Virus record (IMG/VR): IMGVR_UViG_3300043754_000035
Location: 1 to 54,145 of that record
Length of the DNA stretch: 54,145 nt
Strand: one strand, 5' to 3'
Source: a virus
Lineage: Duplodnaviria; Caudoviricetes
In this document: piece by piece, positions 35,229-54,145 of the stretch
How the letters are laid out: each line of letters opens with the position of its first letter
Numbering within the stretch: the first letter of the stretch is position 1
The notes under the pieces: model-generated
What the model was told of the DNA's origin: nothing
The model's input: the letters and a program-made list of their open reading frames with translations, nothing else
Databases searched by the model: none
Made by a program: the position numbers and the translations under genes

Positions 35229-35651
35229 CTACGCGCCGGGCAGCTTGCCGCGCTTACGTAGCTCCTCGATCGCACGCTCCTGCAACGCCATGATCTGGGC
35301 GCCCGTCAGGTCGGGCACGGTCGCGATCGTGGCGTTCTGGATCGCCTGGCGCAGTGCGGCCTCGTCGACCGGCGGGTTTGAGTACCTCGCGCCGGCCGCC
35401 TTCTCGGAGGGGAAGGGGTGGAAGTCGGGGTCGTCGAGGATCTGCTCGCACGTCTTGGTCGGCCAGCCGAGGACGTCGTCCACGCGCGAGTAGGTCGTAT
35501 CGCGGACGCCGAGACCGTCTTCAACGCGCGTCCACGTGGTGTTCGACATGCTCGCGCGTCGGGCGCACTCGTCCTTGGACAGCTTCAACTGGGTGCGGCG
35601 CGTGGTGACGGCTCCGCCGAGTCGTCGCAGGTCCTCAGCATTCCTTGGCAT
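35229..35651 (-). CDS. Probable immunity repressor (XRE HTH)
   Basis: RLG.AV..RR.QL.LS..E.A.RA.MS..TW.RVE.G; divergent from Cro-like gene; start uncertain. Confidence 0.78.
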   Translation of the reverse strand: MPRNAEDLRRLGGAVTTRRTQLKLSKDECARRASMSNTTWTRVEDGLGVRDTTYSRVDDVLGWPTKTCEQILDDPDFHPFPSEKAAGARYSNPPVDEAALRQAIQNATIATVPDLTGAQIMALQERAIEELRKRGKLPGA

Positions 35652-35680
35652 TCCCACATCATCGCAGGACCACCCAGTCA

Positions 35681-35813
35681 CTGCTAGGAGACTCCCAACC
35701 TGTCCGGTTTCTCGCTACAACCTGGCATATGCCGATGCTAGATCCTGCTAGCTCGCGCCAGAAACTACGAGAAGCTGCTAGGCAAAGCTACGAGAACCTG
35801 CTACGTTCTACGC
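35681..35813. promoter_or_regulatory. Lysis/lysogeny switch region with repeated operators; probable leaderless rightward promoter
   Basis: TGCTAG x4, CTACGAGAA(g/c)CTGCTA x2; TACGTT 35802-35807 shortly before ATG 35814. Confidence 0.65.
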
Positions 35814-36062
35814 ATGCCCCAACGATCCACAGTCGAGGTAGACGGGGCGGCGATCCGCAGGATCCGCAAGCTCTCCGGTACTGACATGCGCGATTTGGCC
35901 ATCCAGGTCGGCATCAGCGCGAACTACCTCAGCCGGATCGAGACCGGATCACGTCGCCGCGTCCGGGCGAGCGTCTACGGCGCTCTCCGCGAAGCCCTCG
36001 GCGCGACCGATCAGCAGCTCCTCGCTCCTGGCGAGGACCAACCACAGCAGAGGACTACCTGA
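35814..36062 (+). CDS. Cro-like XRE HTH protein
   Basis: DGAAIRRIR...DLA.QVGISANYLSRIETG. Confidence 0.82.
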   Translation: MPQRSTVEVDGAAIRRIRKLSGTDMRDLAIQVGISANYLSRIETGSRRRVRASVYGALREALGATDQQLLAPGEDQPQQRTT

Positions 36063-36063
36063 C

Positions 36064-42893: not shown

Positions 42894-42988
42894 CGGCGCG
42901 CCCCTGACGGCCCGTGGCGGGACTGGCCGCGAGCCTCCCGCCATGGGCGACCAACCACCGACCGCACCAGCCGAGAGAAGAGCCGCAC

Positions 42989-43909
42989 ATGGCCGAGAAG
43001 GACCGGCGCACTTACGTCCGTGTCCACGACGGGCTGACAGACCACCCGAAGATCATCGAGGTGGGCGGGGAGGCCGCGTGGCTATACATCAGCGCGCTCT
43101 GCTACTCGTCTCGTCAGCTGACCGACGGCCTTGTTCCGAAGCGACTGATCCGCCGGCTAACCGACCTAAGCAACCCTGAAGCACTTGCTTCGGCACTGCT
43201 TCGCGTTGGCTTGCTTCACGACGGCGAACACGACTGCCCGCGATGCCCAGCCGGAGGGTCCGATGTCTACGTCGTGCACGACTATCTCGAGCACCAGCGG
43301 TCCGCTTCCGAGGTTGCCGCACTGCGCGAGAAGCGCTCCGCCGCAGGCCAGAGGGGTGGCAAGCGCTCTGGCGAGTCCCGTCGGGCCGCCTCGAAGAACG
43401 AAGCAAACGACGAAGCACTTGCTTCGGATTTGCTGAAGCAAACGCGAACCAAAACCGAAGCAGAGACAGAGACAGAGACAGAGAGAGAAGAAGTACTACG
43501 TACTTCTTCAACCGCGCGCCGCAAGGCCAGCCACGACGCTCCTCCTCGGGCCGACGTCGAACGCATCTGCCGCGCCCTCGCCGACGCCGTGGAAGCCAAC
43601 GGCTCCAAACGCCCTGCCATCACCGACCGCTGGCGCACATCCGCCCGGCTCCTCCTCGACAAGGACGGTCGCACCGTCGAGCAGGTACTCGGAGCCATCG
43701 AGTGGTCTCAGTCCTCCGACTTCTGGCGCGGAGTTGTCCTGTCGATGCCGAAACTCCGCGACAAGTACGACCAGATGCGCCTCCAAGCACAACGCGGCCA
43801 CGCCCTCGCCGCCACCGGCACCAGCGGCCCCCACTCGTCCACCACCGACCAGCGCGTCCAGGCCGCTCTCGACCTCGCCGCCCGATACGCCCGAGAGGAG
43901 AACGCCTGA
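42989..43909 (+). CDS. Replication initiator
   Basis: DHPK, QLTDG.VP, HDYLEHQ.S; C-terminal FW...VLSM.KLR.KYDQ; internal iterons; followed by loader. Confidence 0.8.
   Translation: MAEKDRRTYVRVHDGLTDHPKIIEVGGEAAWLYISALCYSSRQLTDGLVPKRLIRRLTDLSNPEALASALLRVGLLHDGEHDCPRCPAGGSDVYVVHDYLEHQRSASEVAALREKRSAAGQRGGKRSGESRRAASKNEANDEALASDLLKQTRTKTEAETETETEREEVLRTSSTARRKASHDAPPRADVERICRALADAVEANGSKRPAITDRWRTSARLLLDKDGRTVEQVLGAIEWSQSSDFWRGVVLSMPKLRDKYDQMRLQAQRGHALAATGTSGPHSSTTDQRVQAALDLAARYAREENA
43178..43495. repeat. Iteron-like repeats / probable replication origin inside initiator gene
   Basis: GAAGCACTTGCTTCGG at 43178 and 43412, GAAGCAAACG at 43400 and 43435, purine-rich CAGAGA run from 43461. Confidence 0.65.
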
Positions 43910-51782: not shown

Positions 51783-52213
51783 CCAAGAAGATCAGCATCG
51801 AAGTCTGCAGGGACGGCTGGACCAAGGGCCTGCAGCTGAACATCGACAACGGGAGCGACGGCTACCGGCTCGCCGGCCCGAAGTTCAACGGCTCGTCCAT
51901 GACGCTCCTCAAGACCGAGCTGGACGAGCGCGACGCCCGCGAGATCCGCGAGTACCTCGACCAGGGCTTCCCGCTGACCGAGAACGAGACCCGCGCCGCC
52001 GCTCTTCAGGAAGCCGTGAGCGCCGTGGTGCACCTGATGGTGCCGCTGCCGGGCAGCCACCCGGACAAAAGTGGCCTGCAGGCAGCTCTCAAGCTGCTGC
52101 ACGAGCTTCGCGGTGAGGCCCGCAAGGGGGCAGCCGAGGAGCAGCAGGCGCCCCACTGCCTGTGCGCCGAAAGCACCGCCCACCAGTACGGCTGCCCGCA
52201 GTTCAACGGCTGA
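51779..52213 (+). CDS. Hypothetical protein
   Basis: GGAGG RBS; GYRLAGPKFNG. Confidence 0.7.
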   Translation: MTKKISIEVCRDGWTKGLQLNIDNGSDGYRLAGPKFNGSSMTLLKTELDERDAREIREYLDQGFPLTENETRAAALQEAVSAVVHLMVPLPGSHPDKSGLQAALKLLHELRGEARKGAAEEQQAPHCLCAESTAHQYGCPQFNG

Positions 52214-52291
52214 CCCGCTTCCCCGACGCCAACGGGCCGGGCACGCGACTCCACCGCGGCCCGGCCCCCAACCACCGGAGACACGACTCCC

Positions 52292-53278
52292 ATGGCTGCC
52301 ACGCGCCATACCCTCAAGCACCACGCCCCACGCATCATCGCCGCAGTCTTCACCGCCGCCAGCGCCGCATGGACCCTCTACAGCGTCTGGGACCTACTCG
52401 GCGTCGGCCCCGTCGCCATCACCGCCGGAACCGGCGCGGAAGGCCTGTGGGTCGGCGGAATGCTTGCCTACCGGGCCCAGCGCACGAAACTCACCTGCAC
52501 CGCGATGCTCGCCGGCCTCGCCGGAACCCTCGCCATCCTCGCCGTCCACGGATTCGGCGCCTACGGGTGGGGCGGCATCGTCGCCGTCGTCCCCCCGCTT
52601 GCCGCCGAGCTCTTCTGGCACGTCGACGCCCAACTCACCGCCGACCCCACCGCGCTCACCACCGAGCAGCAGGACGAGGTCAACGACGTCCTCCGCCAGG
52701 CCCGGCACATCACCGCCCGTGCCGCAGCAGATCAGGCACGCGAGGACGCCGAGCACGCCGCGAAGCTCGCCCGCATCCGCCGCGACGGCGAACTCCGCCA
52801 GGCCGAAGACCTCGCCGACTTCGACGTGGCCGTTAGCCGGATCGACATGCAACGGCAGATCACCCGCCGCGCGCCGCTCATGCTCCCCGCCCCGCCGGCG
52901 CCCGAGGACACCGACGGAGACGGCCCGGACAAGCCAGGCGGACAGCGTCCACCTGTGTCCGCGGACGTCCTGTCCGCTGTCCGCGCCGCCCTTGAGTTCA
53001 TGTCCGACGCCACCCCCGAGGCCATCGCCGAGCAGCTCGATCAGGCAGGCGTGCCAGCACCCACCGGCGGCCTGTCCGGACAGCCGGACACCAGCTCAGC
53101 CCAGGTACTCCACCTTGCGGGCGACCCGGGCAGCGGGAGCATCGCGGACACCGTCCGCCGGGCATACCACGCCCTCGGACGCGACCACGAAGCCGTCCTC
53201 GCCTACGTCCGCCGACACCACGGCCCCAACGTCAAGCCGGACACCGTCGCCAAGACACTCCGACGCGTCGCCGGTTGA
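52292..53278 (+). CDS. SpdB-like membrane protein (about 4 TM helices, coiled coil, C-terminal HTH-like domain)
   Basis: GGAG RBS; hydrophobic N-terminal third, charged helical middle, ..AVLAYVRRHHGPNVKPDTVAKTLRR. Confidence 0.7.
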   Translation: MAATRHTLKHHAPRIIAAVFTAASAAWTLYSVWDLLGVGPVAITAGTGAEGLWVGGMLAYRAQRTKLTCTAMLAGLAGTLAILAVHGFGAYGWGGIVAVVPPLAAELFWHVDAQLTADPTALTTEQQDEVNDVLRQARHITARAAADQAREDAEHAAKLARIRRDGELRQAEDLADFDVAVSRIDMQRQITRRAPLMLPAPPAPEDTDGDGPDKPGGQRPPVSADVLSAVRAALEFMSDATPEAIAEQLDQAGVPAPTGGLSGQPDTSSAQVLHLAGDPGSGSIADTVRRAYHALGRDHEAVLAYVRRHHGPNVKPDTVAKTLRRVAG

Positions 53279-53296
53279 AGGAGACGGACATGTCCG
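52926..53296. repeat. Array of 13 CGGACA/TGTCCG motifs including palindromes TGTCCGGACA and CGGACATGTCCG
   Basis: Copies at 52926, 52939, 52956, 52971, 52978, 53001, 53073, 53077, 53085, 53145, 53238, 53285, 53291. Confidence 0.85.
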
Positions 53297-53436
53297 CGCT
53301 GCTCTGGGCGCTCCCCGCCCTCCTCGCACTCGCCGGCCTCTACCGCGCCAAGCCCAACAGCCGGCACACCGTCCGCCTCGCCGCAGCCATCACCCTCTGG
53401 GCCACCTGCATCTGCCTGATCATCACCTGGAGCTGA
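53290..53436 (+). CDS. Small two-TM membrane protein (48 aa)
   Basis: AAGGAG RBS; two hydrophobic segments. Confidence 0.65.
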   Translation: MSALLWALPALLALAGLYRAKPNSRHTVRLAAAITLWATCICLIITWS

Positions 53437-53438
53437 CC

Positions 53439-53729
53439 ATGCCCCAGATCCACCCCGAACGCCTCCGGCCCGGCTACAACGCCACAGCCGCCGTCGGCAG
53501 CCTCATCGCCGCACCCGCCTGGGCCCACGCGCTCACCGCGTCCACCAGCGCCGGACCGCTCGCCCCACTCGGCCTCACCGCCGCCGCGTTCCTCACGGTC
53601 GGCGTCGCCAACTGGGCCGTGCCGTGCTGGCCCACCCGCGCCGCCCTCTACGTCCCCGCCACCGCCCTGGCCATCAGCCCGGCCGCCGCCCACGCCGTCC
53701 TCACCTTCACCACCGGAGCCCACCCGTGA
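53439..53729 (+). CDS. Membrane protein (96 aa)
   Basis: GGAG RBS; hydrophobic; GTGA overlap with next gene. Confidence 0.7.
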   Translation: MPQIHPERLRPGYNATAAVGSLIAAPAWAHALTASTSAGPLAPLGLTAAAFLTVGVANWAVPCWPTRAALYVPATALAISPAAAHAVLTFTTGAHP

Positions 53730-54145
53730 CCGTCACCATCAGCCTCGGCGGCCTGTTCATCGGCCTCGTCTTGCTCCTCCGCCAGTTCCTCCCCGCCGCA
53801 TGGGCCGCCGCCATGAAGAAGGTCGGCCGACCCGGCGGCGACCACGAGCACCACCACGGCACGGGCAAGTTCAACATCCGCGAGCACCTGCCGTTCGTCC
53901 TCGGCGCCATCCTCGGCATGCTCGCCATCGCCTGCCCCGGCGGCGTCCTCGGCAGCATCGCCGCGAAGATCGTCGGATTCAGCAACGCCGCAGGAGACAA
54001 GGTCCTCGCCGCAGGCTCCGGCGGCACCACCATCGGAGTCACCCGGCACGCCGCCGCCACCCTCACCCAGTACGGCGGCATGGTCACCGCACTCCTCGTC
54101 ATCGCCGTCATCATCCTCCGCAAGATCCTCGACAAGCGCGCCAAG
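53726..54145 (+). CDS. 5' part of multi-pass membrane protein continuing to 256
   Basis: GGAG RBS, GTG; several TM segments, short His-rich loop. Confidence 0.75.
   Translation, partial: MTVTISLGGLFIGLVLLLRQFLPAAWAAAMKKVGRPGGDHEHHHGTGKFNIREHLPFVLGAILGMLAIACPGGVLGSIAAKIVGFSNAAGDKVLAAGSGGTTIGVTRHAAATLTQYGGMVTALLVIAVIILRKILDKRAK
54019..54145. repeat. Terminal overlap identical to 1-127
   Basis: Exact identity. Confidence 0.95.

Follow-up and report, generated by a model that had tools for sequence, protein, structure and literature searches.

We report that the last third of a phage gene, here called gene X, holds a dense array of the hexamer CGGACA and its complement TGTCCG. The gene lies in IMG/VR virus record IMGVR_UViG_3300043754_000035, which was analysed over its whole length of 54,145 bp (hereafter the window) and which, judging from its gene content, is the genome of a temperate tailed phage. 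Comparison of gene X with its relatives shows that arrays of this kind are selected at the DNA level, that they are conserved in place and that their word changes with the type of C-terminal domain encoded by the gene. The array is very probably a protein-binding element maintained by selection, and we consider it fairly probable that its reader is the C-terminal tail of the X protein itself. Overall, we lean towards an explanation in which the array co-evolves with a DNA-binding tail of X and docks phage DNA at the membrane; that this docking serves the spread or segregation of the phage is a distinctly more tentative suggestion.

A hexamer array in the last third of gene X

Gene X and the elements of its array are as follows.

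52292..53278, + strand: gene X, 328 aa, predicted membrane-anchored SpdB-like protein with the array in its last third (open reading frame; GC content at third codon positions 0.86; homologues)
52926..53296, both strands: array of 13 CGGACA/TGTCCG copies, 11 in gene X and two that overlap the next gene's ribosome-binding site and start (exact count)
53073..53082, no strand assigned: 10-bp palindrome TGTCCGGACA, made of two overlapping hexamers (read directly in the sequence)
53285..53296, no strand assigned: 12-bp palindrome CGGACATGTCCG, spanning the start codon (ATG at 53290) of the gene that follows (read directly in the sequence)

The initial annotation of this DNA had described 13 exact copies within about 370 bp, on both strands and in several reading frames, where fewer than one would be expected, together with two palindromes at 53073-53082 and 53285-53296, the second of them over the next start codon. 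Our count agrees with this description: 13 of the 50 copies present on both strands of the whole record fall in 52926-53296 (seven on the + strand and six on the - strand), against an expectation of 0.34, and the coordinates of both palindromes were confirmed by reading the sequence. The word shows no genome-wide excess (50 copies versus a shuffle mean of 51.6), and the array is the only cluster of three or more CGGACA sites in the 54-kb record. The k-mer enrichment check suggested in the annotation was positive, 13 being the highest count reached by any canonical hexamer in any 371-bp interval of the record. An isolated inverted pair, TGTCCG/CGGACA, with its members 18 nt apart, is found in a small coding region at 1905-1934 and may be due to chance.

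All 11 in-gene copies lie in codons 205-328, and the first 204 codons contain none. The copies occupy two codon phases and both orientations, and the peptides encoded at them are PDK, GGQ, VSA, LSA, AVR, MSD, LSG, SGQ, PDT, ADT and PDT. Synonymous-codon resampling of the X protein yielded a mean of 2.85 copies (standard deviation 1.30, maximum 9 in 5000 resamples). When the synonymous codons already present in the gene were shuffled instead, the mean was 2.12 (maximum 7 in 5000); the observed number is 11. Rare codons are used to form copies, namely GGA (5% of Gly codons) and GCT (6% of Ala codons). Amino-acid repeats, which the annotation had named among the findings that would overturn its proposal, do not explain the enrichment because the observed count is far above the synonymous mean and rare codons contribute to it.

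The internal palindrome recurs among relatives that share the word. The 4-nt spacing of the TGTCCGGACA type was seen 11 times among 14 loci of the CGGACA class, and the 10-mer itself is present in one or two copies in each of four of five related viral records, its reversed control being present in none. Any site from 12 nt before the X stop codon onward was seen in only three of the 14 loci, and the position of CGGACATGTCCG is therefore not a family-wide property.

Relatives of gene X carry arrays of other words

A word-index search recovered 31 X-family proteins, including the query, and an exhaustive search recovered 60 representatives at E≤0.001. An alignment of 30 close relatives shows strong conservation over the first 200 residues and four unrelated types of C-terminal third. 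A sister family has a different-looking membrane domain ('AWSTASIG...EWLARY') and tail types in common with the window family. At the DNA level we compared 115 loci including the window, which represent 107 distinct genes; they include 49 chromosomal loci from Streptomyces, Kitasatospora, Streptacidiphilus and related genera, and 62 viral contigs. The window family contributes DNA from three loci, one a viral contig found twice (L002/L003) and the others from metagenome contigs (L004 and L005). A profile search of genome contigs with the window-family alignment returned no relative. The cultured phages Kromp, SF3 and TurkishDelight have a relative of X, annotated as 'hypothetical' or 'membrane protein', and N-terminal relatives occur on small plasmids (7-10 kb) of Streptomyces and Protofrankia; a tblastn search of plasmids with the tail of X gave no match.

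For every locus, the hexamer with the strongest enrichment in the 3′ portion of the gene was taken as its word. Over the final 400 bp, each gene's word has densities of 25.8 and 23.5 copies per kb, versus 0.4-2.7 per kb elsewhere in loci of about 7 kb. Against one fixed background, the best hexamer had P<1e-6 in 65 of 105 target regions, and among controls in two of 106 gene 5′ ends, four of 99 upstream regions and two of 99 downstream regions. In 78 of 106 genes an unbiased best-hexamer score was higher than in any of 100 synonymous resamples, and at least three orientation/frame classes are used in 69 of the 79 genes with an array. The question raised in the initial annotation, whether homologues carry different self-embedded motifs, is thus answered in the affirmative, with the word varying by tail type.

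Counted over the 115 loci with duplicates included, the commonest top words are TCCGGA (33), CGGACA (16, including the window), CCGGAC (16), CGGATC (8) and CGGACG (5), followed by CCGGAG, CTGTCC and AGGACA (4 each) and CGCATC (3). The rarest are CGAACA, TGACCA, ATGACC and GCATCA (2 each) and CGGAAC and CGTTGA (1 each), the rest being weak or unclear. When loci are sorted by word, their tails group into matching sequence types. CGGACA pairs with the tail 'HG..V...TV.R', AGGACA/CTGTCC with 'VPRSTIVR..NRE', TCCGGA(G) with 'SV.RTLR' and TCCGGA(C) with 'TV.RYLR'; CGGATC, CGGAAC, TGACCA, CGCATC/GCATCA and CGTTGA each pair with another, unrelated tail. Gp82 of phage Kromp has 19 copies of CGGACA in the last 480 bp of its gene (log10 P -21).

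The sites are also retained in place. Over 134 within-class pairs, which overlap and are non-independent, 858 of 1328 sites were conserved in position versus 342 expected from other hexamer windows, a rate about 2.5 times that of other hexamers. There is one such array per genome in the window and five related viral records that were scanned whole, where the X array, of 8-14 sites, is the only cluster of more than four sites.

An extreme case of copy number is L100 (IMGVR_UViG_3300044698_000167, 1543-1884), with 29 copies of CTGTCC in the last 400 bp of the gene; the linker encoded there repeats a peptide in tandem (AGQDSRTGQPDRT...), with the DNA word as building block.

A change of word between close relatives

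The closest relatives of X with DNA are those of L002 and L004, whose X proteins are 81-82% identical to X of the window in the N-terminal 200 residues. These loci have nine copies of CGAACA where the window has CGGACA. The G-to-A change recurs at many sites and in different frames, and it alters the protein from Asp to Asn (PDT to PNT) and from Gly to Glu (SGQ to SEH). Elsewhere the protein is kept and the codons are changed, as for Thr-Val-Arg, which is encoded by ACC GTC CGC in the window and by ACT GTT CGC in L002. The tails of L002 and L004 are the only ones with Ala in place of the conserved Arg/Lys of the last helix ('TV.R/K'), and we hypothesize that this Arg-to-Ala substitution would account for the change from CGGACA to CGAACA. 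Because it represents one evolutionary event, the change offers a hypothesis on how the word is read out, not a proof.

Runs of ATGCATATGCA are present in L002 (2650-2760) and L005 (around 1214), where TATGCA occurs in nine and seven copies, respectively. These runs lie between divergent genes upstream of the X homologues and form a separate operator-like array.

Predicted domains of the X protein

The domains below were predicted with AlphaFold2 (AF2), with confidence given as the predicted local distance difference test (pLDDT).

52325..52636, + strand: residues 12-115, four hydrophobic helices, predicted membrane domain (AF2 helices 12-35, 41-62, 66-91 and 93-115, low pLDDT)
52661..52870, + strand: residues 124-193, one long predicted helix (AF2 pLDDT 66-85; many invariant columns)
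52961..53044, + strand: residues 224-251, two short predicted helices (AF2)
53141..53272, + strand: residues 284-327, predicted C-terminal three-helix bundle, proposed reader of the array (AF2 pLDDT about 95)

Kyte-Doolittle windows of at least 1.2 are confined to residues 14-113 of X, and the membrane domain is the best conserved part of the family. The long helix is a candidate coiled coil through which X might oligomerize. The two short helices are flanked before and after by linkers that are disordered in the AF2 model. They appear to be the remnant of a first helical module that is complete in relatives, where it aligns as 'TVRxAVRAA..PDATPE.I...L...GI.VD.DTVR'; a match of this region to HTH_32 is weak (E 0.002, below the cut-off). 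The model of the bundle was built on an alignment of 46 tail sequences and is compatible with a DNA-binding fold, with weak VIA-align matches (Z 4-5) to Nur/Fur, BEN, Myb, homeodomain, TetR and small-terminase helix-turn-helix (HTH) structures. Placed on the protein, the hexamers of the array fall in both linkers, in helix 224-236 and in the first and third helices of the bundle.

Relationship of X to SpdB proteins

A Pfam scan of X gave no family at E≤0.001, and Pfam, PHROGs and NCBIfam together returned only weak matches to HTH_32 and phrog_35187 (unknown function) and noise. The library scans also gave no initiator family, terminase family or ATPase domain for X. In the ESM Atlas, by comparison of protein-language-model features, the three clusters nearest to X are named 'protein SpdB' (score 0.90, 186-191 of 256 features); SpdB_N (PF27080) is found in 54-88% of their members and HTH_SpdB_C (PF27079) in 70-94% (Pfam 38.1). 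An hhalign comparison of the X family profile with SpdB of pIJ101 gave E 0.0018, and a comparison with five classical SpdB proteins (that of pIJ101 and four relatives) gave E 0.002 over 163 columns with 32% identity, in both cases at a probability of only 14-15%. The tail profile of X gave no alignment with pIJ101 SpdB, and the tail alone found no usable match in the ESM Atlas. A run of small membrane genes after X is shared with the classical spdB plasmids. Those plasmids have spdB after tra, and neither the complete window record nor Kromp gave an FtsK_SpoIIIE match. We regard X as an SpdB-like protein, the support from profiles being weak.

DUF2637 (PF10935) had no match at E≤1 in the 30 window-family members scanned, one sister-family protein scored 21.5 bits (cut-off 22.8) and Kromp gp82 scored 28.7 bits, above the cut-off. 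Since the window and sister families are homologous over their full length (probability 97.8%), X would be distantly related to DUF2637 and not a member of it. The DUF6011/SWIM protein encoded upstream was considered as an SpdA and dropped, its plasmid relatives being annotated only as DUF6011.

Comparison with known systems

The known systems closest to the array are clt/TraB and sps/SpdA2, and by analogy the array may be a variant of a clt/sps-type locus.

The initial annotation had cited SpdA of pSVH1 as binding a palindrome within its own gene. This has to be corrected, as it is SpdA2 of pIJ101 that has an sps palindrome inside its own gene, and the sps palindromes of pSVH1 are found ahead of spdA and across its start codon (PMC4170104). 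SpdA2 is a protein of 14.7 kDa with a conserved 38-residue N-terminal zinc-finger-like region, and the 12-bp sps is conserved across plasmids (PMC4170104). The likeness to the present case is that a DNA-binding protein of a Streptomyces mobile element has a short palindrome two to three times in its own gene, with loss affecting segregational stability (PMC4170104). The differences are that X is a 328-aa predicted membrane protein with a proposed C-terminal reader and a word that varies by lineage, and that the array here consists of 13 hexamers with one 10-bp and one 12-bp palindrome. In its predicted architecture X does not look SpdA-like and resembles SpdB.

The clt loci of pSVH1, pJV1 and pWTY27 are likewise short repeats, of 7-8 bp, at or over the 3′ end of the gene for their reader TraB/TraA, with plasmid-specific words, in mobile elements of mycelial actinomycetes (PMC4447253, PMC3583192). 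They differ from the array in that the proposed reader X has no translocase motor, no FtsK/SpoIIIE domain having been found in the phage, and in that the hexamer occurs here in both orientations, in 8-20 copies, mostly in coding sequence and in a tailed phage. SpdB2 of pSVH1 has four predicted membrane helices and is reported to oligomerize (PMC4447253). It shares with X these four helices, a helical middle part, a DNA-binding C-terminal part (putative in X) and the small membrane proteins that follow, and X is set apart by its weak similarity to pIJ101 SpdB (E 0.002) and by belonging to a phage without a tra gene. A phage precedent for recruitment of DNA to the membrane is p16.7 of phi29, a phage-encoded integral membrane protein (PMC4974454). 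It differs from X in acting via terminal protein and single-stranded DNA, with no specific site array described in the accessible part of that source (PMC4974454), and has no sequence relation to X.

No description of arrays like the present ones was found in the literature searched, which did not extend to subscription papers. What appears to be new here is the combination of a motorless SpdB-like reader, 8-20 hexamers in both orientations mostly within coding sequence, tailed phages and prophages as carriers, and many specificity classes.

Weak repeats are found in the classical plasmids. In pIJ101 (NC_001387) the 3′ part of spdB (L120 2735-3150, - strand) has four copies of CCGGGTC, and pIJ101-related plasmids repeat GCGTCAC in up to five copies, far weaker than the phage-type arrays. 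The SpdB encoded by plasmid record NZ_CP061945.1 (5284 bp, labelled Pseudomonas sp. SK2) is 99.7% identical to that of pIJ101, and the record seems to be contamination or a fragment of a Streptomyces vector rather than a Pseudomonas plasmid.

Proposed function

In the explanation towards which we lean, the array would be a set of cis-acting protein-binding sites within the part of X that encodes the linkers and the C-terminal three-helix domain, and its most likely reader would be this C-terminal domain. X would sit in the membrane via its four N-terminal helices and would probably oligomerize via the long helix, a step suggested by the helix itself and by the reported oligomerization of SpdB2. 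Several X tails bound at once to the array of about 370 bp would dock phage DNA at the membrane. Because conserved small membrane proteins follow X and because X is SpdB-like, such docking would most plausibly position or move phage DNA in the mycelium, in segregation or spreading, rather than start replication or packaging. Gene and site would travel as one cassette, and the word would therefore follow the tail type even where membrane domains are exchanged. Within this scheme, we infer the DNA binding by the tail, the oligomerization, the membrane docking and the biological purpose. The earlier suggestion of a centromere-like site for the protein's own C-terminal domain stands in part: the change of the word with that domain and the confident prediction of a three-helix bundle speak for it, and the presence of the same word in the immunity switch region of Kromp leaves room for another reader.

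Several observations weigh against this explanation. The array and the tail domain are physically linked, so that their co-variation may partly be hitch-hiking and the argument from word and tail is one of parsimony, not proof. About three of the 11 copies would be expected from the X protein sequence alone, some copies fall on conserved residues (ADT in helix 1 and PDT before helix 3), and 28 of the 106 genes are not above the synonymous null. The fold match of the bundle is generic (best Z 5.2), and a Foldseek search of the bundle against the Protein Data Bank gave nothing at E≤0.001. The five classical pIJ101-type spdB genes show weak repeats only (best log10 P -6.7), and the binding of double-stranded DNA by SpdB2 of pSVH1 is reported to be non-specific (PMC4447253). 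Finally, the word has a second home in Kromp (MH744420.1, 30228-30738; L125 1729-2239), where nine CGGACA/TGTCCG sites lie within about 510 bp, some between the divergent genes 37 (HTH protein) and 38 (annotated immunity repressor) and some in the 3′ end of the latter. These sites form operator-like inverted repeats, arranged TGTCCGTGTCCG...CGGACA and including TGTCCGTGTCCGCGAACGCGGACA and TGTCCGTGTCCGCGGACA, and the Kromp genome holds 93 CGGACA/TGTCCG copies versus 37 for the reversed control. Kromp is the only one of seven whole records examined with a second cluster besides that in X. Either gp82 would also act at the Kromp switch or a regulator of the switch would read the same word.

Alternative explanations

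The Kromp cluster speaks for a regulatory explanation, in which the hexamers would be read by another phage regulator (the immunity repressor, for instance, or a Cro-like or other HTH protein) and the array would serve as a roadblock to transcription, or as a sink for repressor, where the early operon ends. Such a role would recall the stoperators of cluster A mycobacteriophages, which are one-directional. Regulation would also suit the position of the last two sites of the array in the window, which overlap the next gene's start and its ribosome-binding site, and any reader encoded by the same phage would co-vary with the array as the X tail does. We nevertheless judge this explanation unlikely. 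The switch region of the window (35682-36063) has other repeats, CTGCTAG/GCTACG, and one TGTCCG only, so that the window repressor is not an obvious reader of the array, and neither the window nor five other viral records has a second cluster of more than four sites. Moreover, the word follows the C-terminal type of X even where N-terminal families swap, gp38 of Kromp shows no similarity to the X tail, the sites occur in both orientations, unlike stoperators, and no promoter-like or terminator-like site was found near the array (52000-54145).

The remaining explanations appear to us much less probable. The array could be a clt-like locus read by an FtsK/TraB-type translocase of the host or of a co-resident element, X being a mere neighbouring spread protein. 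The clt of Streptomyces plasmids consists of direct 8-bp repeats bound by TraB (PMC4447253), that of pWTY27 comprises 16 bp of traA and the adjacent 159 bp with four 7-bp repeats (PMC3583192), and an FtsK-like AAA ATPase is encoded close to the relatives of X found on small plasmids. This possibility is nonetheless improbable, as scans of the complete window record, the complete genome of Kromp and two partial relatives gave no FtsK_SpoIIIE match, and a host motor would leave unexplained why hosts from the same genera have nine or more lineage-specific words. Still less credence is due to a replication origin or a packaging (pac/cos) site inside the gene. Sites embedded in a gene are familiar from lambda O/ori and from P1 pac; the ori iterons of lambda lie in the linker-coding part of the O gene itself, with a specificity that co-varies among related phages, and short repeats in a linker that co-vary by lineage do have the look of a lambdoid origin. 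X differs from lambda O in being membrane-bound by prediction, and no match of X to an initiator or terminase family was seen. The window has a separate gene with matches to replication-initiator, O-like and DnaD-like PHROGs (42914-43909), which carries its own GAAGCA/TGCTTC array (43135-43601), with nine copies in 371 bp versus 0.16 expected and direct and inverted repeats of 15-27 nt; this set is probably the phage origin, embedded in the initiator gene. In addition, the GC content at the CGGACA array (0.69-0.77) shows no dip, the large terminase gene is about 7 kb away, and relatives of X occur on plasmids of 7-10 kb. Equally remote is the explanation that the array has no function of its own and is a by-product of a Pro/Asp/Gly-rich low-complexity linker or of repeat slippage. 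The linkers are repetitive as peptides (PD, SGQ, PNT, SEH), CCG GAC are preferred Pro-Asp codons, and the 29 CTGTCC of L100 lie in a tandem peptide repeat. A by-product would not, however, be expected to exceed the synonymous nulls, as is seen in the window and in the 78 genes above, nor to use several frames, both strands and rare codons, with copies also within folded helices. It would also leave the retention of sites in place, and the joint replacement, at many sites, of Gly by Glu and of Asp by Asn in the G-to-A switch, without an explanation.

LexA and DnaA boxes were considered and rejected. CGAACA is half of the Gram-positive SOS box, but its copies are not arranged as the CGAAC-N4-GTTCG of a LexA box. 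TGTCC resembles the DnaA box, TTGTCCACA, but the CGAACA and TCCGGA classes break the core of that box. TCCGGA and GGATCC are restriction sites; CGGACA, AGGACA and CGAACA are not palindromes, and restriction was set aside as an explanation.

Implications

Docking by X may be one instance of a wider pattern, which we put forward as a speculative possibility: the SpdB-like proteins of actinomycete phages and small plasmids would be sequence-specific, each reading an array in its own gene, and would dock DNA at the membrane or cross-walls for spread or segregation without the motor TraB. The diversity of words is as expected of determinants that avoid cross-reaction between co-resident elements, as with partition sites, and, if the proposal is true, nine or more specificity classes would act like incompatibility groups and limit the competition of co-resident elements. 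Spd proteins have been known for decades, and SpdB2 was described as a DNA binder without specificity; under this proposal SpdB-like proteins, at least those of the phage and prophage branch, would recognize their own element specifically, and the array would give a first cis handle for asking whether phage DNA in a mycelium is positioned or moved. The cultured phage Kromp, which has the same word and Streptomyces lividans as host, makes the question directly testable, and the natural pairs of tail and word may offer a small recognition code for a compact three-helix domain.

Gene neighbourhood and phage genome

Three genes for small or multi-pass membrane proteins follow gene X.

53290..53436, + strand: small hydrophobic protein, 48 aa, directly 3′ of X (open reading frame; GGAG 6 nt before the ATG)
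53439..53729, + strand: second small hydrophobic protein, 96 aa (tail of the 52071-53729 reading frame)
53729..54145 and across the record junction to window position 256, + strand: conserved multi-pass membrane protein, 181 aa (phrog_16379, E 2.8e-16)

The stop codon of X is at 53276-53278, followed by GGAG at 53280-53283 and the next ATG at 53290. Homologues of the 48-aa protein begin 4-12 nt past the X stop codon in six loci, and homologues of the 181-aa protein are present in 40 loci; in the 12 nearest of these, they lie 157-288 nt beyond X.

The window is a complete IMG/VR virus record whose first and last 127 bases are identical (1-127 and 54019-54145), a terminal repeat that looks like an assembly circle or overlap. 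Its genes include a large terminase, a portal, a tyrosine integrase, an XRE-like repressor candidate, an Ant-like anti-repressor, an exonuclease and the O/DnaD-like replication initiator. Named homologues of gene X are from Kitasatospora, and the sequencing runs that hold window DNA are of soil-metagenome DNA only, with no RNA run listed. At the DNA level, the sole match in a phage collection was an unrelated 238 bp in Thermobifida phage P1312. CTGCTAG/GCTACG repeats are present at 35682-35830, in what is presumably the lysis-lysogeny switch region, between the XRE-like gene (35229-35681, - strand) and the rightward genes, and these words are likely to be the operators of the phage's own repressor.

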